Source: a bacterium
Lineage (GTDB): Bacteria; Patescibacteriota; Minisyncoccia; Phycocordibacterales; Zambryskibacteraceae
NCBI GenBank assembly: GCA_030649135.1
Contig: JAUSGI010000004.1
Location: 1 to 64,000 of the forward strand
Direction of reading: 5' to 3'
DNA: 64,000 bases
In this document: one piece after another, positions 1 to 20,004 of the stretch
Position numbering within the stretch: position 1 is the stretch's first letter
Layout of the letters: every line of letters begins with the position of its first letter
Position numbers and translations under genes: made by a program
The notes under the pieces: model-generated
The model's input: the letters and a program-made list of their open reading frames with translations, nothing else
Database searches by the model: none
What the model was told of the DNA's origin: nothing

Positions 1-378
1 CGAGCCGAAGAATTCTCTGTGCGGGGCAAAGGAGAGAAGGTCCGAGTAGTTTTTCTTTCTTCAGAAGCAAAAAGTGCCATCAAAAAATATCTTGAAAAAC
101 GGAAAGATATAGATAACGACTCAATGTTCCCAGTAACCGCCCGTTCCATCCAAAGAATCATTAAACACTATGCTATTAAGGCCGGTATTTCCAAGAAAGT
201 GACACCGCACGTAGTGCGCCACATGTTTGCCACCGACCTCTTAAGTAATGGTGCCGACCTTCGCAGTGTCCAAATGCTTCTTGGTCACGCTAATATCGCC
301 ACCACCCAAATCTATACTCACGTTACCGACAAAGCTCTTAGGGAAACCCACAAAAAGTTTCATTCGAGAAGGAAATAA
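1..378 (+). CDS. Tyrosine recombinase (XerC/XerD/phage-integrase family), C-terminal part; gene starts upstream of the window
   Basis: Frame continues from base 1 (…EFSVRGKGEKVRVVFLS…). C-terminal catalytic region LLGHANIATTQIYTHV with the conserved Tyr is typical of tyrosine recombinases. Confidence 0.8.
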   Translation, partial: RAEEFSVRGKGEKVRVVFLSSEAKSAIKKYLEKRKDIDNDSMFPVTARSIQRIIKHYAIKAGISKKVTPHVVRHMFATDLLSNGADLRSVQMLLGHANIATTQIYTHVTDKALRETHKKFHSRRK

Positions 379-1409: not shown

Positions 1410-2579
1410 ATGTTTGATTTAAAAGTTATCAATTCGGTGCTCGGCGAACTGGAAGAAGTGCGCGGTATTCCGCGCGCCTCAATTATTGAAGCGATAGAAG
1501 CGGCGCTCGCCACTGCTTATAAAAAGGAATACGGTAAAAAGGGCCAAATTATTCGCACCACCTTTGATTCCAATACTGGTGAGACTCATTTTTTCCAAGT
1601 GAAGATTGTGGTGGATGACTCGCGTGTAATTTTCGATGATGAAGAAGAACCCAAGGAGGGTCCCGCCTCCGCCGAGGCTACGGCGGGCAAGGATGAGCGC
1701 GTGGTTTACAATTCCGAGCACCATATTCTCTTGGAAGATGCCCGTAAAATTAAGAAAGATGCCCAACTGGACGAAGAAATCATCTTTCCTGTCGAGTCGA
1801 AGGGTGACTACGGTCGCATTGCCGCTCAGACCGCCAAACAAGTCATCATGCAGAAAATTCGTGAGGCGGAGAAGATTCATCTTGTTTCCGAGTTCGGCAA
1901 ACGCGAAGGTGAAATTGTATCGGGTACCGTGCAGAGGATGGAGAGGGGTAATGTATTTGTTGACCTCGGTAAAGCACCCGGACTTTTGCCTTATGAGGAG
2001 CAGATTCCCGGTGAGCATTTCAGTCAAGGAGAGCGGGTGCGCGCTTATCTCTACCGAGTGGAAGAAAGTCCAAGAGGAGTGTTCTTGCGTCTCTCGCGTT
2101 CACACCCCAAGTTTCTGGAAAAGCTTTTTGAATCAGAAACCCCCGAGTTGGCGAATGGCGCGGTAGTTATCAAAGCGATTGCTCGGGAAGCTGGCTATCG
2201 TTCCAAAATCGCCGCGGTAGCTCTCGACAACCACATCGACCCGGTAGGAGCGCTTGTGGGTCAGCGAGGAGTGCGAGTTTCTACTGTCATGTCTGAATTG
2301 CGCGGAGAAAAAATTGATATTATCGAGTGGTCCGCCGAGCCTAAGAAATTTATCGAAGAGGCTCTCTCACCGGCCAAGATTCTTAATATTGAAATTAATG
2401 ATGAAGAAAAAACCGCGACCGTAATGGTTTCCGAAGACCAGCAGTCACTCGCCATAGGCAAAGGCGGGCAAAATGTACGTTTGGCGGCCAAACTTACCGG
2501 TTGGAGAATAGATATCCAGTCTGCCAAGGGTGTGGAGCTTGCAGTTGCCGACGTTCCGGAAGATAATAAAGCAGTATGA
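1410..2579 (+). CDS. nusA: Transcription termination/antitermination factor NusA
   Basis: N-terminal MFDLKVINSVLGELEEVRGIPRASIIEAIEAAL, an S1-like region and tandem KH regions; typical NusA architecture. Confidence 0.95.
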   Translation: MFDLKVINSVLGELEEVRGIPRASIIEAIEAALATAYKKEYGKKGQIIRTTFDSNTGETHFFQVKIVVDDSRVIFDDEEEPKEGPASAEATAGKDERVVYNSEHHILLEDARKIKKDAQLDEEIIFPVESKGDYGRIAAQTAKQVIMQKIREAEKIHLVSEFGKREGEIVSGTVQRMERGNVFVDLGKAPGLLPYEEQIPGEHFSQGERVRAYLYRVEESPRGVFLRLSRSHPKFLEKLFESETPELANGAVVIKAIAREAGYRSKIAAVALDNHIDPVGALVGQRGVRVSTVMSELRGEKIDIIEWSAEPKKFIEEALSPAKILNIEINDEEKTATVMVSEDQQSLAIGKGGQNVRLAAKLTGWRIDIQSAKGVELAVADVPEDNKAV

Positions 2580-3103
2580 ATCTCTGGCACGACATAGAAC
2601 CTGGCACTAAAGAAGCGATGAACGTCATCGTGGAAATTAATAAGGGTTCGAAGAACAAATACGAAATAGACAAAAAGACTGGCCTGATTGCTCTCGACCG
2701 GGTCTCTTACACTACGCAAGATTTTCCTTTCGACTACGGCTTTGTGCCGCGCTCACTTTGGCATGACAAAGACGCTTTGGATGTTGTGCTTTTAACCACC
2801 CATCCCCTATTGCCCGGAATTCTCGTGCGGGCACGTCCGATTGCTCTTTTGAACATGATAGATGGGGGCGAGGGCGATGACAAAATTATTGCGGTGCCTA
2901 TTGATGACCCGCGTTTCGATAAAATCCAGGACCTCGGCGATATCAACCCGCACACACTCAAAGAAATCGAGCACTTTTACTCTACCTATAAAAAACTGCA
3001 AAATAAGGAAGTGGAAGTGAAGGGTTTTAAGGGGAGACAGGACGCCCAGGCCGCATTTGAGGAAGGACTCAAGTTATACACAAAACAATTTGAGACTAAA
3101 TAA
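2576..3103 (+). CDS. ppa: Inorganic pyrophosphatase (family I)
   Basis: MNLWHDIEPG…NVIVEINKGSKNKYEIDKKTG…DVVLL, characteristic of soluble PPase. Its ATGA start overlaps the nusA stop. Confidence 0.9.
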   Translation: MNLWHDIEPGTKEAMNVIVEINKGSKNKYEIDKKTGLIALDRVSYTTQDFPFDYGFVPRSLWHDKDALDVVLLTTHPLLPGILVRARPIALLNMIDGGEGDDKIIAVPIDDPRFDKIQDLGDINPHTLKEIEHFYSTYKKLQNKEVEVKGFKGRQDAQAAFEEGLKLYTKQFETK

Positions 3104-3112
3104 AAGAGGTTT

Positions 3113-3134
3113 GCCTACCTACCGATAGGCAGGT
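3113..3134. repeat. GC-rich palindromic motif, family A (gcctacct…aggcagg), copy 1
   Basis: gcctacctaccgataggcaggt. Related copies at 11422-11440 and 44728-44747. Confidence 0.5.
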
Positions 3135-3179
3135 TATAATGGGGGTATTATTACTAACGTTGGATTAAGACTATTAAGC

Positions 3180-3908
3180 ATGAAGAAACAATATTTTTCT
3201 GTCCTTATTTGCTTGGCGCTTGTGTTGGGAGCATTTTCTCCGGTATTGGCAGAAACAGCAACAGGGACAAAGGGCAATATCAACTCAACAACTAGGGCAA
3301 ACTACGAAGCCCAGAGAGTAAAGATGGAAGCTCAACGCGCGAAAATGAGGGCCGAGGCGGAAACTAGAAAGGCGGACGCAGAGTCCAAGGGCGATGAAGT
3401 TCGGGCTAGGCGCGAAGCCAAGAGCCTCGAACTTGAAACCAGAAGGGCGGAGATGGATACTAAACGGGAAGCCAAAAGAGTGGAGGCCGAAGCCAAAAGA
3501 GTTGAAGCCCAGAGCAAGCGGGTGGCGTTCCAAGAGGAAGCCGCTAAGCGCCAAGTGGAAAATGTCACCAAAGTCATTTTGGCCACCATCGGACGTCTCG
3601 AGACAAACATTATCGTACGAGTGGAATCTAGAATTGCCAAGGTTAAGGCTCGAGGAGGTGTTACTACCGAAAGCGAGGGGTTTATAGCCGCAGCCAAGGT
3701 GAACCTTGCTAATGCCAAGGCAGTCGTGGCTACTTTTGCCGGTATTGATCTCTCAAGTGAGAAGGCTCGCGAAAACTTCGAGAAAATCCGTACCGCGGCC
3801 AAAGAAGCACGAGAACATATTCGGGCTGCCCATCAAAATTTGATGATGGCGGTGCGGTCGCTTGGTTCGGTTGAAGTGAAAATAGAAACTGATGACTCGG
3901 TGGAATAG
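3180..3908 (+). CDS. Secreted coiled-coil protein (signal peptide; EAKRVEA repeats)
   Basis: N-terminal hydrophobic signal MKKQYFSVLICLALVLGAFSPVLA, then Ala/Lys/Glu/Arg heptad-like repeats. No catalytic motif. Confidence 0.6.
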   Translation: MKKQYFSVLICLALVLGAFSPVLAETATGTKGNINSTTRANYEAQRVKMEAQRAKMRAEAETRKADAESKGDEVRARREAKSLELETRRAEMDTKREAKRVEAEAKRVEAQSKRVAFQEEAAKRQVENVTKVILATIGRLETNIIVRVESRIAKVKARGGVTTESEGFIAAAKVNLANAKAVVATFAGIDLSSEKARENFEKIRTAAKEAREHIRAAHQNLMMAVRSLGSVEVKIETDDSVE

Positions 3909-3932
3909 TAATTATTCTTAACTAATATTGAA

Positions 3933-4190
3933 ATGGACGGAGAACAAAACAATGTAAATGTGGGCGCGGGAGAAGGTGGAGGCTCGAGCGGTCCTATCAT
4001 CGGGGCCATAGTTATTCTAGCTATTGTAGTACTTGGCGGTTTCTACTTCTGGAATCAGCGCGGTGGTAAGGAAATCACAAACGACACTACCAATACCCAG
4101 ACCGGAGCGGATGACGCCGCCGCTGCTATTGAAGCAGACCTTGATACGGTAGACATTGAAAATCTTGACGCGGAATTGAACGCCTCATAA
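3933..4190 (+). CDS. Small membrane protein (single TM helix, acidic tail)
   Basis: Gly-rich N-terminus, TM segment IIGAIVILAIVVLGGFYFW, then an Asp/Ala-rich tail. Confidence 0.4.
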   Translation: MDGEQNNVNVGAGEGGGSSGPIIGAIVILAIVVLGGFYFWNQRGGKEITNDTTNTQTGADDAAAAIEADLDTVDIENLDAELNAS

Positions 4191-4210
4191 GTTGGGGTTT
4201 CCGTGGACAT

Positions 4211-4249
4211 AACAAAGAGCCCGATAGTTGCGCTATCGGGCTCTTTGTT
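4211..4249 (+). terminator. Perfect 17-bp stem hairpin (aacaaagagcccgatag-ttgcg-ctatcgggctctttgtt) between the small ORF and clpP
   Basis: Inverted repeat seen directly. No clear U-tract follows; it may be a terminator, an RNA processing site or a regulatory element. Confidence 0.5.
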
Positions 4250-4263
4250 ATACGCTACTCGCC

Positions 4264-4839
4264 ATGGGTTATTTAATTCCAACAGTAATAGAAAAAAGCC
4301 AGTTCGGAGAGCGGGCATATGATATTTACTCGCGCCTTTTGCGTGAAAGAATAGTTTTTCTAGCTGGACCTATCAACGATGAGGTGGCCAACATTGTTAT
4401 TGCCCAACTTCTTTTTCTCCAGTCTGAAGACCCGAAGAAGGACATTTCCCTTTATGTTAATTCTCCCGGAGGTGCTGTCACGGCAGGGCTCGCCATCATT
4501 GATTGCATGAATCATATCAAGCCGAATGTTTCCACTGTTTGTTTAGGACTAGCTGCTTCGATGGGCGCTTGGATTCTTTCTTCCGGGCAAAAGGGTAAAC
4601 GTTTTGCCCTTCCCAATGCAGAAATCATGATCCACCAACCGCTTGGAGGAGTCGAAGGTCAGGCTGCCGATATCGAAATAGCCGCCAAACGCATTATTAA
4701 AAATCGTCAGACGATGAATGAGATTATGGCAAAAAATACTGGTCAGCCATTGGCTAAGGTTGCAAAAGACGTCGACAGGGACTTTTTTATGGACCCTGAA
4801 GAGGCCCAAAAATACGGCATCATAGACAAGATTCTATAA
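4264..4839 (+). CDS. clpP: ATP-dependent Clp protease proteolytic subunit ClpP
   Basis: [15 protein letters not shown]…VNSPGGAV…GLAASMGA…MIHQPLGG, the ClpP Ser/His region. Start at ATG 4264 is preferred over the 4228 ORF start, which runs through the hairpin. Confidence 0.95.
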
Positions 4840-4937
4840 CTGTAGTAGACTTCGGGTGTTCACTTAAAAAATTAATTAAAAAGTTTCGTTTCCCTCCTGC
4901 TTTTACGGTTACGACAGTCTGATTCCCCTCTACGTCT

Positions 4938-6467
4938 ATGTCTCTTAAATTAGCGCTACTTTTAGCATTGCTCGCCGCATCGGCCGGTATCGGCTTCGGT
5001 TATTTGTTGCGCCTCTTAATTTCCCTTGGCAAGAAGGGTTCGATGGAGCTCGACATCAAGCAGATGGAGCTTTCCGCCAAAGAGGAGGCGCAGAGGGTTA
5101 TCTCGGAAGCGGAAACTCAAGCGGCAGAAATTATCCAAAAAACTCAAAAAGAATTTAAAGAACGTGAAGAACGGGTTAAAAAAACCGAAGACCGTCTGGT
5201 GACCAAAGAAGAATTTCTCGACAAACGTCAGCTCGATTTGGATAAGGAGGTGGAGCATGTCAGACAAAAAGTGACGGAAACAGCCTCTCTCCGGGAGGAA
5301 GCGGAGACACTGGTCGAAGCTCGCCAGACGGAGCTTTCTAAGGTAGCCGGGCTGTCTCATGGCGAAGCTAAAAATGAACTCTTGAGAGTCGTAGAAAAGG
5401 ATGCCGAGGAAGATATTCTCATCCGTATGCAAAAACTTGAAATTGAAAGTGGAGAACGTCTCGAAGCGCGCGCCAAGGAAATTCTCTCCACTACGATTCA
5501 GAGATTGGCGGTCTCGACTGCTAGTGCCATGATGGGTACGACGGTTTCTCTGCCGTCGGACGAATTGAAAGGCAAAATTATCGGCAAAGAGGGTAGGAAT
5601 ATTAAAGCATTTGAACGCGCTACCGGGGTGGAGGTGATAGTGGATGATACCCCCAATTCCATTACCCTGTCCTCTTTCGACCCTGTACGCAGGGCAGTAG
5701 CAAAATTGGCGCTGGATAACCTGATTCTCGATGGGCGTATTCAGCCGGCCAAGATTGAAGAATTTGTGGAGCAGGCCACAGCTGAAACAAATAAAATTAT
5801 CAAAGAGAAGGGCGAGCAGGCGGCCATTGAATGCGGAGTCTACAATCTTGATTCGAAACTAGTCTCTCTTTTGGGCCGTCTGTATTTTCGTTCCAGTTAT
5901 GGCCAGAACGTGCTTGACCACTCCATAGAGATGAGCCACTTGGCGGGGATGATTGCCACCGAAGTCGGGGCGGATGTAGCGACGGCGAAAGCCGGAGCTC
6001 TTTTGCACGATATCGGCAAGGCTCTTGACCATGAGGTTTCCGGCACACACGTCGACATAGGCAAGAGGATTTTGGCCAAGTTCAATATCCCCGAGGCCGT
6101 CATTCAAGCAATGCAGTCGCATCACGAGGAGTATCCATACGAAACTATTGAGTCCGTTATAGTTCAGACGGCGGATGCTATTTCTGGAGGAAGACCGGGG
6201 GCCCGCCGAGACACTGCCGAGCGTTATCTTAAGCGTCTTGGAGACCTAGAGGCTATTGCCCTCTCCTTTGATGGGGTGGAGAAGGCTTACGCTCTGGCCG
6301 CCGGCCGTGAAGTTCGTGTTTTCGTACTGCCTGACAAAATTTCTGACCTGGAGGCCAAACAAATGGCTAGAGATATCGCTCTACGTATCGAAAGTGAACT
6401 TAAATATCCCGGTGAGATTAAGGTTAATGTCATCCGCGAGGCCCGTTCTATAGAATTTGCCCGCTAG
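4938..6467 (+). CDS. rny: Ribonuclease Y
   Basis: N-terminal TM helix, coiled coil, KH domain (GKIIGKEGRNIKAFERATGVEVIVDD) and HD domain (HSIEMSHLAGMIA…LLHDIGKA). Confidence 0.95.
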   Translation: MSLKLALLLALLAASAGIGFGYLLRLLISLGKKGSMELDIKQMELSAKEEAQRVISEAETQAAEIIQKTQKEFKEREERVKKTEDRLVTKEEFLDKRQLDLDKEVEHVRQKVTETASLREEAETLVEARQTELSKVAGLSHGEAKNELLRVVEKDAEEDILIRMQKLEIESGERLEARAKEILSTTIQRLAVSTASAMMGTTVSLPSDELKGKIIGKEGRNIKAFERATGVEVIVDDTPNSITLSSFDPVRRAVAKLALDNLILDGRIQPAKIEEFVEQATAETNKIIKEKGEQAAIECGVYNLDSKLVSLLGRLYFRSSYGQNVLDHSIEMSHLAGMIATEVGADVATAKAGALLHDIGKALDHEVSGTHVDIGKRILAKFNIPEAVIQAMQSHHEEYPYETIESVIVQTADAISGGRPGARRDTAERYLKRLGDLEAIALSFDGVEKAYALAAGREVRVFVLPDKISDLEAKQMARDIALRIESELKYPGEIKVNVIREARSIEFAR

Positions 6468-6578
6468 CTTGCCCCGACTTGGCGTGGGTTGCTTAAAAAA
6501 CGGCTTAGTATATAATCAAAAGCGAGTTCACAGGTGTTCAAAGCTAGGATTTATCAAATAAAAAATAACAGTAGACAA

Positions 6579-6851
6579 ATGAATAAGGTAGATATTGCAA
6601 ACGCAGTGCACGGTAAGCTCAATGGTACGAAAGTGCAGGCAGAAGAGGTTGTTGATATTGTCATTGATTCCATCGTCTCTACTCTCAAGAAAGGAGGCGA
6701 AGTTTCAATTGCTGGTCTAGGCATCTTCTCAACCAAGGTGCGCGCAGCGCGCCAAGCTAGGAACCCTCGTACCGGTCAAGCTATCTCAGTGCCATCAATG
6801 CGAGTACCTAAGTTTCGCCCAGCTAAGGCCTTGAAGGAAGCAGTTAAGTAG
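6579..6851 (+). CDS. hup: DNA-binding protein HU
   Basis: MNKVDIANAV…GEVSIAGLGIFSTKVRAARQARNPRTGQAISVPS, the HU/IHF fold signature. Start at the internal Met 6579. Confidence 0.9.
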   Translation: MNKVDIANAVHGKLNGTKVQAEEVVDIVIDSIVSTLKKGGEVSIAGLGIFSTKVRAARQARNPRTGQAISVPSMRVPKFRPAKALKEAVK

Positions 6852-6873
6852 ATTTCGTTAAATTTCCCACAAA

Positions 6874-6902
6874 CAAAAAATCCGCTTCGGCGGGTTTTTT
6901 GT
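6874..6902 (+). terminator. Rho-independent terminator after hup
   Basis: aaaaaatccgc-ttcg-gcgggtttttt: GC stem plus T-tract. Confidence 0.8.
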
Positions 6903-7161
6903 TTGAAATAATATAAAAGAAAGCCGCCCCCTCGTTACGAAACGAAAGTTTGGCTTTCGTCTCGCCCGAGTGGGGCGGTTATGGGCGAAGCATTGCGCTT
7001 CGCCCAGCTTTTTAACGTGGTTCACCCCACGGAGCTGTGGTCTCGTTCGCATGTTATTCAGGAATGGCTAGTTCCCTACTCCTACATGCGAATCCCCACT
7101 CACGTTTCACCTAACGGGTTTTATTGTCTAGGAGTTGTCCTTCTCCCTGAGAGTTACGAGC

Positions 7162-7563
7162 TCAGACTCGTCTAGCGGCAGCGTAGAACTTCTCTGTCTC
7201 TAGAACAGCTTGTGGCCTCTGCATTCTGCTCCAACAACCGTCGCAACCGCAGGTGGCAGCGTGCAGAATGTTGTTCACTAGATGCGGTGAACACTCGGCG
7301 AAGTAGCAGACAACTTCACATTCTTCCTGCTCTTCGTCCCAGCGGATGAATCCCGGTGGAATTTCTCGCCATCCCCGCTGCGCTTTCAGCAGTGACTCGA
7401 GACTGGCGCCTGCCTCTATCGCCGTGCGTAAGGCTTTGAGTGACAGCCGACTACGACGTTCCACCACGACATTAATGCAATGGCGATCGAAGAGGATAAG
7501 AGCGTTTCTCCTTGCGTCCGCGCACCACTTCCTCGAACGATTTTCCCTAAGTGGATTCGGCAT
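7162..7563 (-). CDS. GC-rich Cys-rich protein, HNH-like Zn-finger nuclease-like (tentative)
   Basis: Cys pairs (WCADARRN…DRHC; CEVVCYFAEC; CGCDGC) flank HLVNNILH (H-x3-N-x4-H), reminiscent of HNH. SD GGGGGTGAAAGG before ATG 7563. Much GC-richer than neighbours (by eye). Confidence 0.35.
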   Translation of the reverse strand: MPNPLRENRSRKWCADARRNALILFDRHCINVVVERRSRLSLKALRTAIEAGASLESLLKAQRGWREIPPGFIRWDEEQEECEVVCYFAECSPHLVNNILHAATCGCDGCWSRMQRPQAVLETEKFYAAARRV

Positions 7564-7898
7564 CCTTTCACCCCCTCTTATTCTCACTAGCCAAGTGAGA
7601 TTGATTTTAAAGAACAGAGCGAACTATATTCGCTCTTCTGAAAATCCAATTGACATTAGAATTTCGGAAGAGCGAGCGAACGGTGTTTTGTCCGTTCGCT
7701 CGTTGAGCTGTTTTTACGCGCAAGGAGGGGCCAAAAGGCTCGTGCCATAACCCCATCCAGAGGATCACCGACGTATCAGTGTCGTAGTGGGATTTTCACT
7801 TGCGCAACCCCGGGCAAGGGATACTTCGCCTTTCTGCCCGATCAATTAAGCGGGATCCAGATAACCACCCCCTTCAGCGTGATGGTTTGTGTTGCCAA

Positions 7899-8192
7899 TT
7901 ACGTCTTGCTTCTCGTGATGACGGCGGTCGGGAAGTTCATCTTTACTGAGAATGCTTCGCCCTCAAGCGCGATACGATTCAGGGTCCTGGTGAGCTTCAT
8001 GTGCCACGTCAGATCAGATTCACCGGTCGCTGTTTCTAGCTCGATCTGCACCGCAGGACATCCGCACCGGAGAAAGTTAACTGCCATCTCACGGTGTGCA
8101 ACGGTATTCGTTGAGATAACCGGAACTTCACCCTCACGAATCGTCACCACATCAACTGACTGCGTGATGAACACTGCGCTTGAGATACTCAT
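7899..8192 (-). CDS. GC-rich hypothetical protein (97 aa)
   Basis: ORF with SD AAAGGGAGGGG before ATG 8192 and a consensus promoter upstream. No recognized domain. Confidence 0.4.
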   Translation of the reverse strand: MSISSAVFITQSVDVVTIREGEVPVISTNTVAHREMAVNFLRCGCPAVQIELETATGESDLTWHMKLTRTLNRIALEGEAFSVKMNFPTAVITRSKT

Positions 8193-8267
8193 TCCGCCCC
8201 TCCCTTTGTTGTTGGCTGAAAGAACATGAGCGAACCATTTCGCCCACCAAAACTTTCATCTGTAACC

Positions 8268-8296
8268 ATTATACGCTAATTTTTATAATATGTCAA
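8268..8296 (-). promoter_or_regulatory. Consensus sigma70-type promoter (TTGACA-17-TATAAT) on the minus strand, driving the 7899-8192 ORF
   Basis: Minus-strand reading TTGACAtattataaaaattagcgTATAAT; both hexamers perfect, spacer 17. Confidence 0.6.
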
Positions 8297-8396
8297 TATT
8301 TAGGTCAAATATTTCTATAGGTACTCAAAATATTGCTTATTTACTTGATTAATGTATGATAAAAATGTTGACCTTTAGGCCGACATATTTAACAAA

Positions 8397-9137
8397 ATGA
8401 CCTCAACAGACCTACAAAACATTGGATTAGATGGAAAAGAGTCTACGGCGTATTTGGCCCTTCTTGAGCTTGGCGAAGCCACTATGGGCGGGCTCGTGAA
8501 GAAGTCCGGCCTGAAGCGCACCACCCTCTACGACACCATCGAGTCGCTTAAAGGCAAGGGACTAGTCAGTACAGCCAAAAGGCAGAAGAAAATCATCTAT
8601 ATAGCTGAGGATCCTAGGAAGATCCTGGAACAACTGGATGAAAAGAAATCAGCAGTAGAGAAAATGCTTCCCGAACTACTCTCTATTACCAATACTCTGA
8701 AACAAAAGCCGCGCATTAGATATTTTGAAGGCCTAGAAGGCATTAAAGAAGTGTATCGAGATACGTTGCGCTATCCAGATCAAAAAGTTCAGGCCTGGGT
8801 TTCTGAAGAAATGGTTCTCGAGTTTGATAAAAAGTTCATGGACGAATACCCGAAGAAGCGCACGGAGAAAAAAATATGGGCAGAGGTAATTGCGCCTGAT
8901 CTGCCGGAAATTCAGCGTTATAAAGGGCTCGATACAGCCTCACTCCGTACTACGCGACTCATTGATCCGGAGCGGTTCCCGCTTGCAGTCGAAATTAGCC
9001 TATATGGACCAGATCGCATCGGCATCATGTCGTTCCAAGACCAGCTAGGACTTATTATCGAAAGTGGTCCCATGGCCCGTACCTTAAAAAGTATCTTCGC
9101 TCTTCAATGGGAATCACTCGAAGATACTAAAGGATAA
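8397..9137 (+). CDS. TrmB-family transcriptional regulator (N-terminal wHTH)
   Basis: N-terminus LGLDGKESTAYLALLELGEATMGGLVKKSGLKRTTLYDTIESLKGKGLV matches the TrmB HTH. Confidence 0.75.
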   Translation: MTSTDLQNIGLDGKESTAYLALLELGEATMGGLVKKSGLKRTTLYDTIESLKGKGLVSTAKRQKKIIYIAEDPRKILEQLDEKKSAVEKMLPELLSITNTLKQKPRIRYFEGLEGIKEVYRDTLRYPDQKVQAWVSEEMVLEFDKKFMDEYPKKRTEKKIWAEVIAPDLPEIQRYKGLDTASLRTTRLIDPERFPLAVEISLYGPDRIGIMSFQDQLGLIIESGPMARTLKSIFALQWESLEDTKG

Positions 9138-9202
9138 AAACCATCCATAAACTTATTCACTTCCCTCTACACTTATAATCCGCTATAGCGTACTATAGAT
9201 GT

Positions 9203-9769
9203 ATGGGGAGGCTCGAAGAAGAAAATAGGAAGAGAGTGAGACGAGGAGAGATTCAGAAGTTAATTTTGAATTCAGTAAAAATTGCAGGAGTTTTAAGCAT
9301 TGGACTAGTTGCTCCTCAAGTGATTGGAGCTATGGGGAAGCTTGGGCTTATCACAAATAAGCGTCAGGATGAGATTGTGCGATCTTCCGCGAGCAAATTA
9401 GTGAAGAAAGGTTTGCTTAAGTATGAAAACAATAGATACAAGCTTACAGTAGATGGAGAAAAACAGTTAAGGCGATGGGAGCTACAGGACTATAAGCTTA
9501 CTCAACCAAAGAAATGGGATAAAAAGTGGCGGGTCATCATTTTCGATATTCCAGAGAAAAAGAAGAAAATCAGACATCAAATCCGTTATCTATTTACTAC
9601 TGCGGGGCTGTCTCGCCTGCAAGATAGTGTTTGGGTTTTTCCATATGACTGCGAAGATCTTATTGGTCTATTGAAAACAGATTTTGGTATTGGAAAAGAT
9701 CTTCTGTATTTGATTGTAGATGAGATAGAAAATGATAAACATCTACGCGAAGAATTCGGTCTTCTCTAG
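9203..9769 (+). CDS. PaaX-like transcriptional regulator (wHTH plus PaaX-C-like domain)
   Basis: W-rich C-terminal motif WDKKWRVIIFDIPEKKKKIRHQIRYLFTTAGLSRLQDSVWVFP resembles the PaaX C-terminal domain; N-terminal KKGLLKYENNRYKLTVDGEKQL is wHTH-like. Confidence 0.5.
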   Translation: MGRLEEENRKRVRRGEIQKLILNSVKIAGVLSIGLVAPQVIGAMGKLGLITNKRQDEIVRSSASKLVKKGLLKYENNRYKLTVDGEKQLRRWELQDYKLTQPKKWDKKWRVIIFDIPEKKKKIRHQIRYLFTTAGLSRLQDSVWVFPYDCEDLIGLLKTDFGIGKDLLYLIVDEIENDKHLREEFGLL

Positions 9770-9857
9770 TCACATCTATATTTTACTATAGAAAACTATC
9801 GATGTGAGAATTAAGTTCAGAATGATACTGAAATTATGCTGGAAATGGGGCGGGAAA

Positions 9858-11333
9858 CTATTGGACTTTGTATTCCTCTCGGATTTTTTCTATTTCTTTT
9901 TCTTCGTCACTTTGATTCTTGGCACGGGCCACTTTGCCAAGTCCGGCTAACTCTTCTGATTTGAGAGCATGTAACTCCCCCACTCTGCCTTCCATGTGCT
10001 CTGGGCTGTTAAGTTTGGGGTTCTCAAGCACTTCAGAGAGGAGAATTTCCAAGATGAAACCGATATGTGGGCCCGGGCCGGCTTTGGTTAGTCTCATGAT
10101 ATCGGCGCCGTTTATGCCAAGTTGTTTAACGGAGATTGGATCACGCAGGACTTCTTCAATCATTGATTTATATTTACGCAGACGGAAAGGGGTTTCTTTG
10201 GGTCGGCCGGTGCCGATGCGGTCGCAGACCCGCAGGTCCACCAAGTCCCAAATCAAGTCAGTGCCGACATTTCTAACAATCCTCCGCACGGCGCTTAATG
10301 TGATTTTTTCGGTGTCGGAGAAGAACATGTGCCATCGCACGAGCTTCACTGCTTTCTCCACAATTTCTTTAGGGAAATGCAGGTCTGTCAAAATTGTTCT
10401 GGAAAGCCGTGCTCCAACAACCTCGTGGTTATAGAAAGTCCATTGGTTCTTAAGACGCTTTCTTGTATGGGGTTTAGCAACATCATGGGCGAAGGCGGCA
10501 AGTCGCACGTGGAGGGGAAAGTCTTTCTTAGCGGCGTGATTTAGAGTGCGGAGGAGGTGTTCCCAGACGGTGTAGGCATGAGCCTGATTTTGTTCCATAC
10601 CTATCCCCTTTTCAAACTCCGGTGAAATAAAATTCAGGAGCCCGAGGCGACTAGCCAAATCTAAAGCGAGCGCGGGTGTCTCCGACATGATAATTTTTGT
10701 AAACTCATCACGTATTCGTTCGCGGGAGATGTGTTCCAGAAGTTCGGCGTGCGTCGTTATCGCGATTTGCGTATCATGTTCTATGGCAAAGTTTAATTCA
10801 CTAGCCAAACGCAATGCCCGAAACATGCGCAGGGCATCTTCACCAAATCTTTCGTCCGGTCTGCCCACGGTGCGAATCATTTTTTTTTCAATATCTTCCA
10901 GGCCTCCAAATGGGTCAAGTAAATCTTCGGTTAGAATATTGTAAGCAAGGGCGTTCATAGTGAAGTCTCGGCGCGCCAAGTCATCTTCTATGGTTTTACC
11001 CCACTCCACTTTATCCGGTCGGCGGAAGTCAGAATATCCCGACTCGATCCGGTACGGAGTAATCTCCACGACCTTGAGAGTTTTGTCACTCGTATCTTCG
11101 TTGACTACTCCAACTGTGCCGTACTCGTTTTCATAAAATGTTTTTGGGAAGATTTTTATTATTTCCTCTGGTTTGGCATTCGTCGCGATGTCCCAGTCTT
11201 TGGGAGCTCTGCCTATGACCAAGTCTCGTACGCATCCGCCAACGAGAAAACTTTCAAATCCGGCATCGGTAAGTATGCGTGAAATGTTTTTCACTTCTTC
11301 AGGAATCTCGAATTTGTATTTTGCGTCTTTCAT
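9858..11333 (-). CDS. cca: CCA-adding tRNA nucleotidyltransferase with HD domain
   Basis: GGCVRDLVIGRAPKDWDIATNA (Pol-beta nucleotidyltransferase head), a poly(A)-polymerase-like body and a C-terminal HD region (HD…H…D). Confidence 0.9.
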   Translation of the reverse strand: MKDAKYKFEIPEEVKNISRILTDAGFESFLVGGCVRDLVIGRAPKDWDIATNAKPEEIIKIFPKTFYENEYGTVGVVNEDTSDKTLKVVEITPYRIESGYSDFRRPDKVEWGKTIEDDLARRDFTMNALAYNILTEDLLDPFGGLEDIEKKMIRTVGRPDERFGEDALRMFRALRLASELNFAIEHDTQIAITTHAELLEHISRERIRDEFTKIIMSETPALALDLASRLGLLNFISPEFEKGIGMEQNQAHAYTVWEHLLRTLNHAAKKDFPLHVRLAAFAHDVAKPHTRKRLKNQWTFYNHEVVGARLSRTILTDLHFPKEIVEKAVKLVRWHMFFSDTEKITLSAVRRIVRNVGTDLIWDLVDLRVCDRIGTGRPKETPFRLRKYKSMIEEVLRDPISVKQLGINGADIMRLTKAGPGPHIGFILEILLSEVLENPKLNSPEHMEGRVGELHALKSEELAGLGKVARAKNQSDEEKEIEKIREEYKVQ

Positions 11334-11352
11334 ATTAGTGTCCAGCGCTTTG

Positions 11353-11423
11353 TGCCCCCAGCAGGAATCGAACCCACATCACCTGTTCCGAAGACAGGTA
11401 CTTTATCCGTTAAGCTATAGGGG
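11353..11423 (-). tRNA. tRNA-Arg (anticodon TCG)
   Basis: Minus-strand cloverleaf GCCCCTATAGCTTAACGGATAAAGTACCTGTCTTCGGAACAGG…GGTTCGATTCCTGCTGGGGGCA; anticodon loop CTTCGGA. Confidence 0.8.
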
Positions 11424-11440
11424 CCTACCTGCGCAGGCAG
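11422..11440. repeat. GC-rich palindromic motif, family A, copy 2 (abuts the 5' end of tRNA-Arg)
   Basis: gcctacctgcgcaggcagg. Its reverse complement matches 19 of 20 bases with the 44728 copy. Confidence 0.5.
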
Positions 11441-11505
11441 GCAACATCGATATCGTACCTCAAAACTCGATTTTTTTCCTTTAGTACGCTATTATCTTTT
11501 CACTC

Positions 11506-11576
11506 GCGGCTATGGTTTAGTGGTAGAACACGTCCTTGCCAAGGACGAGATTCGGGTTCGATTCCCGGTAGCCGCA
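11506..11576 (+). tRNA. tRNA-Gly (anticodon GCC)
   Basis: GCGGCTATGGTTTAGTGGTAGAACACGTCCTTGCCAAGGACG…GGTTCGATTCCCGGTAGCCGCA; anticodon loop TTGCCAA. Confidence 0.85.
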
Positions 11577-11577
11577 C

Positions 11578-11648
11578 CGGGCTGTAGTACAGCGGTAGTA
11601 TACACGCTTCGGGAGTGTGAGACCCGAGTTCGATTCTCGGCAGCCCGA
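11578..11648 (+). tRNA. tRNA-Pro (anticodon CGG)
   Basis: CGGGCTGTAGTACAGCGGTAGTATACACGCTTCGGGAGTGTG…CCGAGTTCGATTCTCGGCAGCCCGA. Perfect 7-bp acceptor with C1:G72 and A73, which are Pro identity elements; loop TTCGGGA. Confidence 0.8.
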
Positions 11649-11675
11649 TGCCAAGTTTTATTAAGCACATATAGA

Positions 11676-11746
11676 CGGGCCGTCGTATACCGGTAGTATT
11701 TGCGCTTTGGGAGCGTAAGGACTGGGTTCGATTCCCAGCGGCCCGA
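11676..11746 (+). tRNA. tRNA-Pro (anticodon TGG)
   Basis: CGGGCCGTCGTATACCGGTAGTATTTGCGCTTTGGGAGCGTA…CTGGGTTCGATTCCCAGCGGCCCGA; C1:G72; loop TTTGGGA. Confidence 0.8.
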
Positions 11747-11766
11747 TAAGATACAATTAAATATGC

Positions 11767-11837
11767 CGGGCTGTGGTATAACGGTATTACTCATGGCTGG
11801 GGGTCATGCAACCCGGGTTCAACTCCCGGCAGCCCGA
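11767..11837 (+). tRNA. tRNA-Pro (anticodon GGG)
   Basis: CGGGCTGTGGTATAACGGTATTACTCATGGCTGGGGGTCATG…CCGGGTTCAACTCCCGGCAGCCCGA; C1:G72; loop CTGGGGG. Confidence 0.8.
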
Positions 11838-11846
11838 AAGAATAAT

Positions 11847-11917
11847 GCGGGATTAGTTTAATGGTAGAACAATAGATTTCCAATCTGTTGGTGGGAGTTC
11901 GATTCCCCCATCCCGCA
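11847..11917 (+). tRNA. tRNA-Gly (anticodon TCC)
   Basis: GCGGGATTAGTTTAATGGTAGAACAATAGATTTCCAATCTGT…GGGAGTTCGATTCCCCCATCCCGCA; loop TTTCCAA. Confidence 0.85.
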
Positions 11918-11921
11918 CAAA

Positions 11922-11957
11922 ATCAAAATGCTCTGGCTTGTGCTATGGCATTTTGAT
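11922..11957 (+). other. Perfect 10-bp stem hairpin immediately 3' of tRNA-Gly(TCC)
   Basis: atcaaaatgc-[16 nt]-gcattttgat. Confidence 0.5.
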
Positions 11958-12075
11958 TTATGAGGGGGAATCGAACAGGAAGGGGGTCGGGGAAACTCTA
12001 GTTTCCTCGTGGAGGAAGGCAGGGCGAAGCCCGTCGGAAAACCGTGGGTTTCCGAGGAGTGAGATAGCGAAGCGT

Positions 12076-12089
12076 CCCCCATCCCGCAC
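12076..12089 (+). repeat. Direct repeat of the tRNA-Gly(TCC) 3' end (cccccatcccgcac), second copy
   Basis: Identical 14-15-mer at 11905-11918 (inside the tRNA) and again at 12076-12089, about 160 bp apart. Confidence 0.6.
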
Positions 12090-12096
12090 CGTAGGT

Positions 12097-12534
12097 CTAA
12101 ATAATCACATTGTCGATTAGCTCTACCCTGGCCTTTCGGGTTTGGTGGTCCATTTTGACAGTTACCAGATCTAACTGCCAATCAAGCTCGAGGTTCTTTT
12201 CTAATAAGTATGTTTGAATTGCTCTAGATAATCGTTTAAGTTTCCATGGGTGCATATTGTCTTCAGGTCTGTAGTCAGACGTTCCACGCCCGCCATCGCT
12301 ACGCTCAGGCGTTAGCGGGCGGGCATGTGTGACAGGTTCATCTAAAGTTACACGAGAAACTGATTTGACCTCCACAAAATGGATGACGTTAGATTTTCTA
12401 GCCACAATATCGATTTCTCCCCACTTTCTAAGATAATTTCTTTCTATAATTTCAAATCCCCTCTTCTCTAAAAAACCACAGGCTATATTCTCTCCGATGT
12501 CTCCAAGCCTTCTTTTTTCCGTTCTATTGTCCAT
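12097..12534 (-). CDS. YraN/UPF0102-family endonuclease-like protein with C-terminal extension
   Basis: GDIGENIACGFLEKRGFEIIERNYLRKWGEIDIVARKSNVIHFVEVKS matches the UPF0102 (YraN) PD-(D/E)xK-like core. Confidence 0.7.
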   Translation of the reverse strand: MDNRTEKRRLGDIGENIACGFLEKRGFEIIERNYLRKWGEIDIVARKSNVIHFVEVKSVSRVTLDEPVTHARPLTPERSDGGRGTSDYRPEDNMHPWKLKRLSRAIQTYLLEKNLELDWQLDLVTVKMDHQTRKARVELIDNVII

Positions 12535-13109
12535 AAAGTTTCATATGAAACTCTTATTTTAAGAAAAGGGCTATAATTAAGGACATATTGGTGTGCTGTC
12601 GCTTAAATATATGTCTTTTACTCCCCATATTCCACATAATTATCCACAGTTTCGCTAATTTATGGTCTAATTCTCCTTTAAATAAAGAGCTTTTTACGTT
12701 ATAAGATTAAGGACAAAATAAGTACAGCCCCTCGACTTTGCTCGGGGTAAACAAAAACCCGCCGGCAGGCAATCTGCTAGCGGGGTGATCCCGCTAAAGC
12801 GAGATCGGGTCGCCTCAGCTCTTACGAGCTTCGGCGGACCAAGGAAGATTATCCCAGAACGAGAATAGGGCCCAGAAGATGCACGTAACCAAAAAATAAA
12901 AAAGTTGAGGGTTCGTCATCCCTGCCCAAACTCCCAAACCAGAATAAACTTCCGGTAACTGGAATGGCCTTCCAAGAACACATGCCTGGATTCCAATCTC
13001 GATTAGAGAACCGATAATATCCACCAAGCGCCTGACGACATTCTATCTTATAAAGGACAAATTTGTAAGCACAAAGTTGTGGATAACTTTTGTCCTTTAT
13101 AATATGGCT

Positions 13110-13880
13110 TTATTTAAGCGTTAATTTGATAGGGCAGTGGTCTGAACCTAAAATATTGTCAAGTATTTCTGTAGACTTTATTTTCCCTAACATTTCCGGA
13201 GAGGAGAAAAAATAATCTATTCTCCATCCAATGTTTCTCTCTCTGGCAAAACTTTTCATATCCCAATAGGTATAAGCCCCGGCTTTATCAGGATAAAAGT
13301 GGCGGAAGACATCTGTCCAACCATTGGCAATGAGTTTGTTCATCCACGCCCTTTCTATGGGTAGGAAACCAACATGGGTCTCATTTTCCTTTGGTCTGGC
13401 CAGGTCTATTGGCTCGTGAGCGACGTTAATATCACCACACAGGATAATATTCGGTTGTTTCTTGTGTAACTTATTTATGAATTCTAGGAAATAGTCATAG
13501 AAATCTAACTTGTACCGTAGCCTCTCTGGAGCCCCTCCGCCGTTAGGGAAGTAGACGTTGATAAGAGTAAAATCCTTATATTCAGCCATAATTAGCCGGC
13601 CTTCCTTATCCATTTCTTCAATTCCTATGTCACGTGAAACATACAAAGGTTTAACCTTTGTATAGATGGCTACACCGCTGTAGCCTTTCTTAATGGTAGG
13701 GAAGTGGAAGTAAGAGTGGTACCCGTCTGGGTCTTTCAGCTCCGGTGGCAGTTGCTCGGGTAGTGTTTTAGTCTCCTGTATGCATAAAATATCTGGTTTC
13801 ATATGGAACACTTCAGCAATGTTTCCCTTGCGGTGCACCGCCCTAAGCCCATTGACGTTCCAGGAGATGATAGTTCGCAT
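13110..13880 (-). CDS. xth: Exodeoxyribonuclease III (AP endonuclease)
   Basis: MRTIISWNVNGLRA…PDILCIQETK…; EEP-family ExoIII pattern over the full length. Confidence 0.9.
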   Translation of the reverse strand: MRTIISWNVNGLRAVHRKGNIAEVFHMKPDILCIQETKTLPEQLPPELKDPDGYHSYFHFPTIKKGYSGVAIYTKVKPLYVSRDIGIEEMDKEGRLIMAEYKDFTLINVYFPNGGGAPERLRYKLDFYDYFLEFINKLHKKQPNIILCGDINVAHEPIDLARPKENETHVGFLPIERAWMNKLIANGWTDVFRHFYPDKAGAYTYWDMKSFARERNIGWRIDYFFSSPEMLGKIKSTEILDNILGSDHCPIKLTLK

Positions 13881-13914
13881 ATCTATTTAATAAGTAATGT
13901 TGCCACGCACAGGT

Positions 13915-14436
13915 TTACCCACAGCTGAGGCCAATCTTGAGTTCTTCGTCATGAGAAAGAAACATAAAATGGATACGGTATGTTTTTCCCGTAGCTGCCG
14001 ACGTTTTTTGCTTGTCTTTTAGTCCTACGTGGAAGTGGTCATATGGCGGAACACTGTTGATGAAGCCAAAAAATGATGAGGCAAGACCCCAACCCGGGAA
14101 CTCTTTTCCTACCATGCGAAGCCCAATTTTCGATTCCGGAATTTCATACTCGACTGAAACAATTCTGTACCCATATACACCGTAAATTGGACCACTATTT
14201 TTGACCGCTTCCGGCATTGCGTAATGATGCATTTCGCCAATTGGTTGGCCGTTTTCATCACGCGCCACTTCTGCTTCGGGATGAACGTGTGCCACATGAA
14301 TCACGCCTTCGGGTAGATCCTCCAGAGTTAATGTGCGTACTGTGGGTTTTTGCTTGATTGAAATAAATACCATGACCACGAGTAAAGCGAGAAAAACCAT
14401 GCCAATCACAAGGACTAATTTACGGGAGATAAACAT
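13915..14436 (-). CDS. Hypothetical membrane-anchored protein
   Basis: N-terminal TM helix; no recognizable motif. Confidence 0.45.
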   Translation of the reverse strand: MFISRKLVLVIGMVFLALLVVMVFISIKQKPTVRTLTLEDLPEGVIHVAHVHPEAEVARDENGQPIGEMHHYAMPEAVKNSGPIYGVYGYRIVSVEYEIPESKIGLRMVGKEFPGWGLASSFFGFINSVPPYDHFHVGLKDKQKTSAATGKTYRIHFMFLSHDEELKIGLSCG

Positions 14437-14440
14437 ACTT

Positions 14441-16087: not shown

Positions 16088-16139
16088 AGTGTTTGGCCAT
16101 GATTATACCTCATGCCCCGTGATATGATGAGTTTCTGCA

Positions 16140-18083: not shown

Positions 18084-18165
18084 CGCTTCTTCTGTCTTGG
18101 TAACATTTTGATCTGTGGATAAAAAACTTGCATATCAATAATGAATTGTCTGATATACTTAAGGT

Positions 18166-18408
18166 ATGACTATTAAGGTAAAGAAGGTCACTAAATATTC
18201 GAGATATTTTTTACTTCTTGCCGTCGCATCGCTTGCCTCGTTGGTATTAGCAGAAAGAAGTGGGGGCAGTCTTTCTGATACCTCACAAGGTGGGGTAATC
18301 CCTATTGTACACGCTGACGCTCCTGGTGGTGATAGTGGTGATAGTGGTGACGGTGACGCTGGTAGTGGTGGTGGTAGTGATTGTGGTAGTGCCGGTGACT
18401 GCTTATAA
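18166..18408 (+). CDS. Small secreted Gly/Asp/Ser-rich protein encoded by a short tandem repeat
   Basis: Signal-like N-terminus, then GGDSGDSGDGDAGSGGGSDCGSAGDC encoded by the ggtgatagt/ggtggtagt repeats. Confidence 0.4.
   Translation: MTIKVKKVTKYSRYFLLLAVASLASLVLAERSGGSLSDTSQGGVIPIVHADAPGGDSGDSGDGDAGSGGGSDCGSAGDCL
18325..18392 (+). repeat. Coding microsatellite (ggtgatagtggtgatagtggtgacggtgac… 9-mer-like tandem repeats)
   Basis: Seen directly. It produces the spurious poly-Val ORF in the other frame (18305 start). Confidence 0.7.
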
Positions 18409-18442
18409 GTGTCGGAGACCCCCCTTTAATTTTATCGATACC

Positions 18443-19537: not shown

Positions 19538-19569
19538 ATTTTTATCTCATAACAAAGGGAGTCCGTAAT

Positions 19570-20004
19570 ATGAAACGATACGAAAAGATAATACTGGTTA
19601 TACTTGCCGTTATCGCTACAGTACTAGCAATCTACCTTACCCCACTTAAGAACCTCAACCTCATAGAACCAAGGATTAATACTATTGACCCTAAAACTTT
19701 CTATGATGCCTATGTAAAGAATCCAGATGCGTATGTGTTCATTGATGTCCGCCCGGATAGTAGTTATCAGAGCATTCACGCTCCCGGGTCGATCAATGTT
19801 CCCTTGCACACACTTTATGACGAACGACGTGTACTGCCGAAACGCGGCAAAACAATAGTGCTTATCTGTAGTGGCAACCGTGCTTCTAGAGTTGGTTACG
19901 GATATCTCGAACACTACGGCTTTCTAAATTTGATGCAAATTGAAGGTGGAATAGAAAACTGGCAGCTAGAAGGATTGCCCGTTGAAACCAGAGGCATATT
20001 ATGA
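19570..20004 (+). CDS. Rhodanese-domain sulfurtransferase (membrane-anchored)
   Basis: N-terminal TM helix; rhodanese fold with active-site loop LICSGNRAS (catalytic Cys). Confidence 0.8.
   Translation: MKRYEKIILVILAVIATVLAIYLTPLKNLNLIEPRINTIDPKTFYDAYVKNPDAYVFIDVRPDSSYQSIHAPGSINVPLHTLYDERRVLPKRGKTIVLICSGNRASRVGYGYLEHYGFLNLMQIEGGIENWQLEGLPVETRGIL

Follow-up and report, generated by a model that had tools for sequence, protein, structure and literature searches.

We describe a two-gene accessory operon, lying between hup and cca on a Patescibacteria chromosome, whose junction is built from consecutive RNA hairpins and a BoxA-like tract. The operon was found in a 64,000-nt stretch of DNA, hereafter the window, of contig JAUSGI010000004.1 (assembly GCA_030649135.1), where two minus-strand open reading frames (ORFs), ORF97 and ORF134, occur between the hup terminator (6870-6905) and position 8300. 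Three hairpins, which we call the A-B-C module, separate the two genes at 7701..7616 of the minus strand. Based on sequence comparison, we hold with moderate confidence, roughly an even call, that these hairpins together with BoxA/Nus antitermination form the RNA "punctuation" of the operon, which occupies a hotspot of strain variation and was probably derived from a mobile element or phage. The parts of the junction in the window, in the direction of the genes, are as follows.

7674..7701, minus strand: hairpin A, GAGCGAACGG-ACAAAACA-CCGUUCGCUC, GC-rich; every copy has one, differing in sequence and compensated.
7632..7673, minus strand: hairpin B, conserved at its base (GCUCUUCYGA/UCAGAAGAGC) and variable, with covariation, at its apex (covariance model R1, 79 bits).
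7616..7636, minus strand: hairpin C, AGAGCGAA-UAUAG-UUCGCUCU (alignments A1-A3); like A, it persists among copies that differ in sequence.
7605..7615, minus strand: BoxA-like element GUUCUUUAAAA, a perfect match to GYTCTTTAANA.

The order A, B, C, and a tract GUUCUUU is followed, 20 to 55 nt on, by a Shine-Dalgarno (SD) sequence and a start codon, and all A-B-C copies lie in this position on the gene-sense strand. Hairpin C has the general form GAGCGAA-loop-UUCGCUC and shares about 5 nt of its 5′ arm with the 3′ arm of B, an overlap that is kept in a sequence variant, v2, of the related locus L080 (C, GAUGGGAC/GUCCC). The element was first met as window segment 7680..7610, which recurs between every gene of a 3.7-kb array on a contig with an ORF134 homologue (L001). 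Covariance model R1 found one canonical copy in the window (7682..7607, 79 bits); L001 has 5 copies, L060 at least 7, and L080 at least 6, all of them sense. Across 22 copies of hairpin B, 93.5% of the cells are paired and double changes occur in 8 of 16 pairs. The covariation score is 0.421, compared with 0.151 after shuffling (0 of 500 reach the observed value) and at most 0.169 with slid partners. Besides, 19 of 24 copies fold better as the sense strand (p = 0.002, a figure that overstates the independence of these related sequences).

A pattern scan of genome contigs, with one genome per species, gave full A-B-C copies only in Patescibacteria (Sungbacteria, Kaiserbacteria, and Saccharibacteria); 4 of its 49 matches were true, all from this phylum, and the rest were mostly due to chance. 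A metagenome scan added further copies, and viral scans matched neither v1 nor v2. Rfam 15 and the literature searched contain neither the A-B-C module nor module X, a second structured element described below. In the window, Rfam returned nothing at gathering score nor down to E = 10, the best score in 6700-8500 being a 22.8-bit microRNA hairpin artefact, and the related loci likewise gave no known RNA family for the modules. Known families (transfer-messenger RNA [tmRNA], RNase P, 6S RNA, riboswitches, and the pistol, twister, and hatchet ribozymes) were rejected for lack of an Rfam match. This accords with the first-pass annotation, which had seen no hallmarks of tmRNA or RNase P; no known housekeeping RNA accounts for the structured stretches. 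Its report of dense hairpins not explained by coding was borne out as well, since both hairpins it named, gagcgaacgg/ccgttcgctc (7701..7674) and ggcgaagc/gcttcgcc (7005..6983), are real and folding goes far beyond dinucleotide shuffles (z = -4.75 on the minus and -4.61 on the plus strand for 7564-7898; -7.98 and -8.22 on the two strands for 6866-7161; no shuffle as good in either).

We also rejected a genome-wide repeat, either a repetitive extragenic palindrome or bacterial interspersed mosaic element (REP/BIME-like) or a miniature inverted-repeat transposable element: only one canonical copy is present in 64 kb, and copies cluster in arrays. A promoter inside B-C was discarded as not conserved. 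It is unlikely that A-B-C is a double-stranded DNA operator for the neighboring TrmB regulator, because the half-site spacing varies by many nucleotides. In the 5′ arm of B, the conserved CGCUCUUC (window 7673-7663) resembles the lambda-type boxA core CGCUCUUA; this is probably a coincidence, because variant v2 has no CGCUCUUC.

The tract behind hairpin C, GTTCTTTAAAA at 7615..7605, has no mismatch to the BoxA consensus GYTCTTTAANA (PMC5725501) and is the only perfect match in the window. It is identical to the boxA of the Legionella array of clustered regularly interspaced short palindromic repeats (CRISPR), a functional element that raises array transcription about 10-fold (PMC7862264). BoxA-bound NusB/NusE, with NusA and NusG, prevents Rho termination in ribosomal RNA (rRNA) and in CRISPR arrays (PMC7665894). 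At most two BoxA mismatches are found in 13 of the 24 A-B-C copies, versus 2.8% by chance. As read from the sequences, the conserved G and C positions of the tract are not what the U-tract of a terminator needs.

The same tract is found behind a different RNA in L080, a 20.9-kb phage-like contig with ParB-methyltransferase and ImmA/XRE genes and 14 small same-strand genes, one of them an ORF134 homologue. Its junctions are of three kinds: A-B-C variant v2 (B, UCCCAUCAGAG.../...UCUGAUGGGA; C, GGGAC/GUCCC), module X copies, and, at two junctions, type III hammerheads. These hammerhead candidates, at 760-814 and 1425-1479, are full-length RF00008 matches (44.6 and 40.2 bits; E = 1.5e-7 and 2.7e-6) that lie below the gathering score of 48.5 and have the full core CUGANGA...GAAA, three stems, and a GUC site. 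Each is followed by GTTCTTTAAAA or GTTCATTAAAT, as A-B-C is. Thus, self-cleaving RNA holds the slot of A-B-C, since the hammerheads sit at intercistronic junctions before the same tract. No hammerhead was found in the window. The contig has two further features of this kind. A leader of a third type, also repeated, stands before three other genes of the array (356-409, 2255-2308, and 3072-3120) and consists of hairpin CUYGRGUGGCUCCRAG and then AAAAAGGAGGUGAG. In addition, an apparently structured, ORF-free stretch of 340 nt (815-1157) follows the first hammerhead, and one segment of it, GUAGGAGUAGGG...AACUAGCAAUUCCUAC, is similar to the insert in P2 of module X in the window.

The operon around the junction has the following features upstream of and including the second gene.

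8268..8296, minus strand: sigma-70 consensus promoter at the head of the array, TTGACA-17-TATAAT, matching the consensus at 12/12 positions.
8217..8247, minus strand: 5′ leader, a C-type hairpin GUGGGCGAA-AUGG-UUCGCUCAU and then BoxA-like GUUCUUUCA; terminator-like scan match.
7899..8192, minus strand: ORF97, a small protein with family motif MAVNFLRCGCPAVQI (clusters, alignment, AlphaFold2).
7706..7898, minus strand: structured 3′ untranslated region (UTR) of ORF97, with closing helix GCGCAAG/CUUGCGC and the end GUAAAAACAGCU (fold z as given above for this stretch).
7564..7604, minus strand: ORF134 leader, hairpin UCUCACU-UGGCU-AGUGAGA (7600..7582) and SD GAGGGGGUGA (7577..7568), kept in L001 and L003.
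7162..7563, minus strand: ORF134, a small orphan with a probable Zn site HAAxCGCDGCW (alignment, profile and structure searches).

Both genes have purine-rich SD sequences, AAGGGAGGGG at 8206..8197 for ORF97 and GAGGGGGTGA at 7577..7568 for ORF134, so that two minus-strand ORFs with strong SDs and a perfect promoter are present as first annotated. ORF134 is taken from ATG 7563 to the stop at 7162; the listed 141-aa ORF opens at an upstream GTG, and the homologues begin at the ATG. Equivalent consensus-like promoters head the different arrays that two relatives, L065 and L072, carry in the same interval. The first cistron, ORF97, has hairpin C and the BoxA-like tract directly behind the promoter, without A or B, and this leader is 86% identical to the C hairpin and leader at 3475-3517 of L060. 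In the 3′ UTR of ORF97, homology to a spacer of L060 that has no ORF (774-804) extends over a short stretch, and the CG-UAAAA linker at its end recurs upstream of hairpin A in other copies.

We propose a mechanism that would comprise Nus binding, antitermination, and cleavage. One consensus promoter would drive the whole operon, and each cistron would have hairpin C and a BoxA-like tract as its 5′ module, to which the internal junction would add A and B upstream; the leader of the first cistron is as expected if C and BoxA form such a per-cistron module. BoxA would recruit NusB and NusE (S10) to the elongating polymerase and, with NusA and NusG, these proteins would make transcription resist Rho and the hairpins of a long, poorly translated transcript. 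The long hairpin B would be a double-strand-specific cleavage or processing site. When B is cut or opened, its 3′ arm would be freed and C would fold to protect the 5′ end of the downstream mRNA like a cap, while hairpin A and module X would remain as protective 3′ ends of the upstream mRNA. The hammerheads in L080 would do the job of hairpin B, and the conserved arms would also let modules swap between arrays.

Several observations weigh against this punctuation by BoxA. The consensus used is gammaproteobacterial and may not be that of the host lineage (neither the window nor any of the related loci contains an rRNA operon), and about one-third of the A-B-C copies have a poor BoxA (at least four mismatches). 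One perfect 11-mer in 64 kb is not significant alone (chance about 0.25, our estimate from the pattern length), and in a shuffle control the window had 14 sequences with at most one mismatch to the consensus versus 12.2 expected. The relatedness of the 24 copies counts here too. A simple terminator scan also accepts hairpin C with its U-rich tract, the stem being short, the tract interrupted, and its G and C conserved. A crude motif search for nusB, rho, and rnc (RNase III) gave no match in the window, which is a fraction of the genome. Furthermore, BoxA near an SD sequence can repress translation and promote Rho termination, as for suhB (PMC5725501).

The position of the operon was examined in relatives that have the window's exact HU protein and the same synteny (S15, Xer, NusA, PPase, ClpP, RNase Y, HU, and cca). 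The region after hup proved to be an accessory insert, since identical-HU relatives carry other genes there, and the hup-cca interval, whose content differs among them, is in our view a hotspot where strains vary. Most of them have a promoter, ORF83, ORF79, module X, and a ParDE pair in the interval; in L065 the ParE toxin and its antitoxin lie at 7400-7892. In L072, a TrmB gene diverges from the promoter, which is followed by a CheY-like ORF214, an A-B-C copy, a 51-aa ORF, and, as the last element, a hairpin A accompanied by just the 5′ arm of B. The array of at least seven modules in L060 ends convergent to a hup gene, in the same position as that of the window. The window shares its hairpin A with L072, where it stands after an unrelated gene, and its B apex with L003 and L045; since A and the apex match different loci, the modules are mosaics that break within the conserved arms of B. 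ORF134 was found in three other contexts and on the phage-like contig. The first-pass annotation had also called the region a GC-rich island. A shift exists, but it is weak, about 5 points above background (GC content of 0.522 at 6905-8200 versus 0.468 in the window and 0.499 in the neighboring rny gene).

Downstream of ORF134, the transcript is predicted to end in a second series of structures.

7115..7166, minus strand: first part of the RNA 3′ of ORF134, conserved, with two small hairpins that covary and an invariant 26-mer GGACAACUCCUAGACAAUAAAACCCG (alignment A8 of the window, L001, L003, and L080).
7035..7106, minus strand: module X, with P1 (GYGG/CCRC), a purine-rich asymmetric loop GGA/CGAGA, and P2 with a CUAGCCA-loop insert (covariance model R2, 59 bits).
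7006..7032, minus strand: hairpin P3 (CCGUGG-GGUGAA-CCACG) and A-rich linker UUAAAAAGCU, compensated in L001, L056, L060, and L065.
6983..7005, minus strand: terminal A-type hairpin GGGCGAAGC-GCAAU-GCUUCGCCC, in position and type like the terminal hairpin A of L072.
6913..6978, minus strand: long GC-closed hairpin and then CUUUCUUUUAU, the probable intrinsic terminator of the array (terminator-like match, fold).
6870..6905, both strands: bidirectional hup terminator (A-run, hairpin, T-run), the edge of the variable interval (sequence, fold).

Relatives whose HU protein is identical have a different stem sequence in the hup terminator. Between the window and L080, the 3′ region of ORF134 is better conserved than the protein, 26 nt being invariant where the proteins are 37-41% identical. 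Six distinct copies of module X each fold independently to one shape. P1 is 100% paired, with two covarying pairs, and P2 is wholly different yet complementary in each copy, often with the inserted CUAGCCA-loop hairpin. The covariation score, 0.26 versus 0.14 after shuffling (0 of 500), also beats all slides, and model R2 gave 15 strong sense-strand matches. Genes of the ORF134 family have module X behind them in the window, L001, L003, and L080/L081, and weakly in L076-78; module X follows unrelated ORFs as well. Most viral matches were due to chance in high-GC coding DNA. Two module X-like sequences with a well-paired P2 were seen in high-GC viral entries of IMG/VR (L083, 45-91, 47.5 bits; L089, 11146-11191, 40.1 bits), and the motif may reach beyond Patescibacteria. 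P3 followed by UUAAA resembles the start of a pistol ribozyme, which was rejected because Rfam Pistol gave no match and the loop has no pseudoknot partner. For the loop of module X, a K-turn was considered; the covariation register does not fit one of the standard type.

The main rival to RNA punctuation treats A-B-C as DNA, namely, as recombination sites of integron-like cassettes on which a recombinase acts on folded single strands, or, in a weaker form, as conserved arms for homologous recombination, like the promoter early stem-loops (PeSLs) of T4-type phages. We consider it unlikely, although much in the arrays resembles such a system. Small promoterless genes in the same orientation, with their own SD sequences, are split by imperfect palindromes whose base is conserved and whose apex varies; one end has a strong promoter; the number and content of cassettes vary at one chromosomal position; and ORF134 occurs in at least three contexts. 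The elements are mosaic at the B arms (A as in L072; apex as in L003 and L045), and the partial elements, with A and the 5′ arm of B only at the end of L072 and C only at the start of the window's array, would fit too. However, the attC cores RYYYAAC/GTTRRRY are absent, alignments A1-A3 showing no conserved AAC...GTT pair at the ends, and three successive hairpins replace the single bulged hairpin. No integron integrase is encoded among the scanned neighbors (to about 20.7 kb), the only recombinase being a truncated, syntenic housekeeping Xer-type gene 6.5 kb away. The literature searched describes no integron cassettes of such a kind in Patescibacteria. In addition, the downstream element does not travel with ORF134, and an RNA role is indicated by the BoxA match and by the presence of hammerheads in the equivalent slot. 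A canonical integron was rejected on attC cores, fold, IntI, and the absence of a report for the phylum.

A second alternative keeps the RNA and dispenses with BoxA. A-B-C would be a pure processing signal (an RNase III-type site or else a ribozyme of a new, self-cleaving type) that cuts the polycistronic RNA into stable monocistronic units, with GUUCUUU as a U-rich translational leader of only coincidental BoxA likeness. Hairpin B, a 16- to 22-bp duplex with recurrent internal mismatches (C.A in 14 and G.G in 7 of 22 copies), is of suitable form, and such a mismatched duplex resembles the RNase III sites of the T7 early region. The hammerheads in the equivalent slot of L080 are as expected, and the B/C overlap kept in two sequence variants would allow refolding after cleavage. 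We nevertheless judge this account rather improbable. The 11-nt BoxA identity recurs after hammerheads and A-B-C alike. As for a ribozyme, known families gave no match in Rfam, and A-B-C has no conserved catalytic core, because the B stems of v1 and v2 differ by compensated substitutions.

A broader version of the RNA hypothesis, which we rate as no less doubtful than a pure processing signal, is that A-B-C and module X are new functional RNA classes that punctuate mobile small-gene arrays of Patescibacteria and phages. A-B-C would then be self-cleaving or nuclease-guiding and interchangeable with hammerheads, its arms doubling as recombination joints; the arrays would be integron-like without an integron integrase; and module X would bind a protein or ligand as a 3′ domain, with the ORF134 family possibly recognizing it.

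A further possibility, which we think quite unlikely, is that C and its U-tract are an intrinsic terminator with B as antiterminator, giving each gene a protein- or ligand-controlled attenuator, or that A and C are bidirectional terminators insulating cassettes. The terminator scan did flag C on the minus strand (7636..7616 and 8247..8226), and the overlap of the B 3′ arm with the C 5′ arm is like that of ribonucleic antiterminator (RAT)/terminator pairs. The stem of C has only 5-9 bp, however, and the tract GUUCUUUAA is interrupted; its conserved G/C positions would be unexplained, and the same tract follows hammerheads. C would rarely win over B, because B is far more stable and is transcribed first. 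Besides, termination at every junction would silence the distal genes in arrays of 7-14 cistrons. On the plus strand, the scan flagged hairpin A with a T-run at 7671-7704 and 6982-7006, the second being the terminal hairpin 6983..7005; there, the hairpin and the complement of the UAAAAA linker read as an intrinsic terminator. The junctions may also block transcription entering against the array, such as hup read-through.

Neither protein had a match in Pfam, PHROGs, PADLOC, or NCBIfam (for ORF134, at E ≤ 1). In an exhaustive HMMER search, ORF134 fell into only 4 clusters among 1.84 billion representatives; it has two close and three distant homologues (37-41% identity), none of them annotated. 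The homologues keep the reading frame, with substitutions of 16/18/27 by codon position, a mild third-position lean. Only Y-x-A...H-A-A-x-C-G-C-D-G-C-W-x-R (HAAxCGCDGCW; H-x3-C-x-C-x2-C-W) is invariant in the six-member alignment. We conclude that ORF134 is a genuine orphan that probably binds Zn and is not an HNH nuclease. The first-pass annotation had proposed an HNH-like arrangement, and the literal string CEVVC..H-LVNN-ILH..CGCDGC is present in the window's translation. It is not conserved in the family, however: H94 is replaced by Y or Q, the pair N97/N98 by KN, TH, AD, or AS, and C82/C86 are lost. Profile searches of both proteins showed no nuclease similarity, and a confident AlphaFold model of ORF134 has no structural relative and no likeness to any nuclease. 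The spacing from H to N to H is also too short for a beta-beta-alpha-metal finger. That the locus is an island of structured RNA with an HNH-type homing or mobile endonuclease gene, as the C-x3-C ... H-x3-NN-x3-H ... C-x-C-x2-C pattern and the accessory nature of the region had suggested, is therefore extremely improbable, given the varying catalytic His/Asn and Cys pair, the lack of nuclease profiles, and the model.

ORF97 forms 4 clusters among 5.8 billion proteins, with three distant relatives sharing MAVNFLRCGCPAVQI, and its AlphaFold2 model is of medium confidence (predicted local distance difference test score of 75). One homologue stands behind a consensus-like promoter (L005) and another between repeated hairpin and GTTCTTTCAC elements (L004). 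In L004, a direct repeat (9901-9953 and 10396-10448) flanks the homologue P0006 and is a third sequence variant, …UUGAGAUCACAAUUUCAAUUGCGAUUUCAUUGAGUAAMGUUCUUUCAC. Each repeat copy is preceded by a GC hairpin, and a tmRNA gene lies 3.3 kb upstream.

The genes neighboring the operon include one regulator that adjoins the promoter.

8397..9137, plus strand: TrmB-family winged-helix regulator gene, divergent from the operon (Pfam TrmB, 2.8e-14).

This gene is a possible regulator of the array promoter. TrmB genes are divergent from or adjoin arrays in five lineages (window, 8397-9137; L072, 7716-8492; L045, 5723-6493 and 7723-; L024, 2114-2866; L078, 3003-3718) and adjoin arrays in L077-79 also. 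By analogy with the anti-defence Aca regulator, TrmB may repress the consensus promoter; such genes are abundant in these genomes, and the association could be due to chance. After the TrmB gene, at 9203-9769, is a PaaX-like protein with a Cas2-like central domain (PF20803, 1.2e-17). Both genes appear to be part of the variable insert, because they are absent here in most identical-HU relatives. A Pfam scan of 15 neighboring proteins (window 1410-20678) found no recombinase, and the neighbors are housekeeping. The only recombinase is the truncated Xer-type tyrosine recombinase gene at 19..378, in which the window starts and which is syntenic in the relatives (S15-Xer-NusA). A 138-aa ORF lies between Xer and nusA (895-1311), and the counterpart spot in L072 has a 140-aa Fic-domain gene.

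Two related loci have neighbors of other kinds. In GCA_002774845.1, a TrmB-plus-array module that includes an ORF134 homologue adjoins rbfA-infB, and at a distance of 2-3 kb from it are a large serine recombinase (L077, 3665-4648; L078, 590-1573) and a DUF3800 gene; their proximity suggests that the module can belong to an integrative element. In L024, from Candidatus Sungbacteria, a Y-RNA-like gene (4310-4382) matched the nematode stem-bulge RNA model ceN72-3 above gathering score (41.4 bits). A gene that reads as TROVE/Ro60-like lies just downstream (4475-6058), and an A-B-C element lies about 200 nt further upstream.

The combination of a three-hairpin module with a per-cistron BoxA, interchangeable with hammerheads, and of module X appears to be new: single components are known, and the literature searched has no description of it. 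BoxA/Nus antitermination has so far been seen in rRNA, lambdoid phages, a few leaders, and CRISPR arrays. If our preferred reading is true, accessory arrays of candidate-phyla-radiation bacteria and of their mobile elements employ it at each single cistron. This would add to RNA biology two conserved structured modules not in Rfam, one of which trades places with hammerheads, and would give intercistronic ribozymes of phage-type arrays a concrete role in transcript punctuation. The hup-cca interval is also marked as a hotspot of strain variation in small genomes otherwise poor in recognizable mobile elements.

Each part of the system has a known counterpart. Like integron attC arrays, the arrays described here have promoterless small ORFs in the same orientation, structured repeats with a conserved base and variable apex, a promoter at one end, and variable content at a fixed locus; unlike them, they have no attC cores, no IntI, another fold, and no evident site-specific junctions. 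The PeSL cassettes of T4-type phages are similar in that small novel ORFs lie between short, conserved stem-loops of regulatory function, which allow modules to be shuffled. PeSLs carry a promoter, however, whereas A-B-C has no conserved promoter and is found on Patescibacteria chromosomes and a phage-like contig. The RNase III hairpins of the T7 early region, and the lambda N-leader hairpin by nutL, are likewise long mismatched hairpins between small genes on one transcript from a strong promoter, and they remain at the mRNA ends after cutting, as is predicted here; their sequences are unrelated, and each site here has two more hairpins and a BoxA-like tract. Type III hammerheads in phage and prophage arrays occupy the same intercistronic slot and, in L080, precede the same BoxA-like tract, whereas A-B-C has neither a hammerhead core nor a conserved candidate catalytic core. 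With BoxA/nut-like sites (the boxB-boxA-boxC of rrn leaders, lambda nut, CRISPR arrays, and suhB), the junction shares the match to the 11-nt consensus, the position just 3′ of a hairpin, in the order of rrn leaders, and the placement in the leader of a long, structure-rich, little-translated transcript, and NusA is encoded nearby. In contrast to those sites, the element recurs in front of every cistron of an accessory array that codes for proteins, rather than once per operon, is part of a conserved three-hairpin module where Nus binding is putative, and occurs in Patescibacteria and on a phage-like contig.

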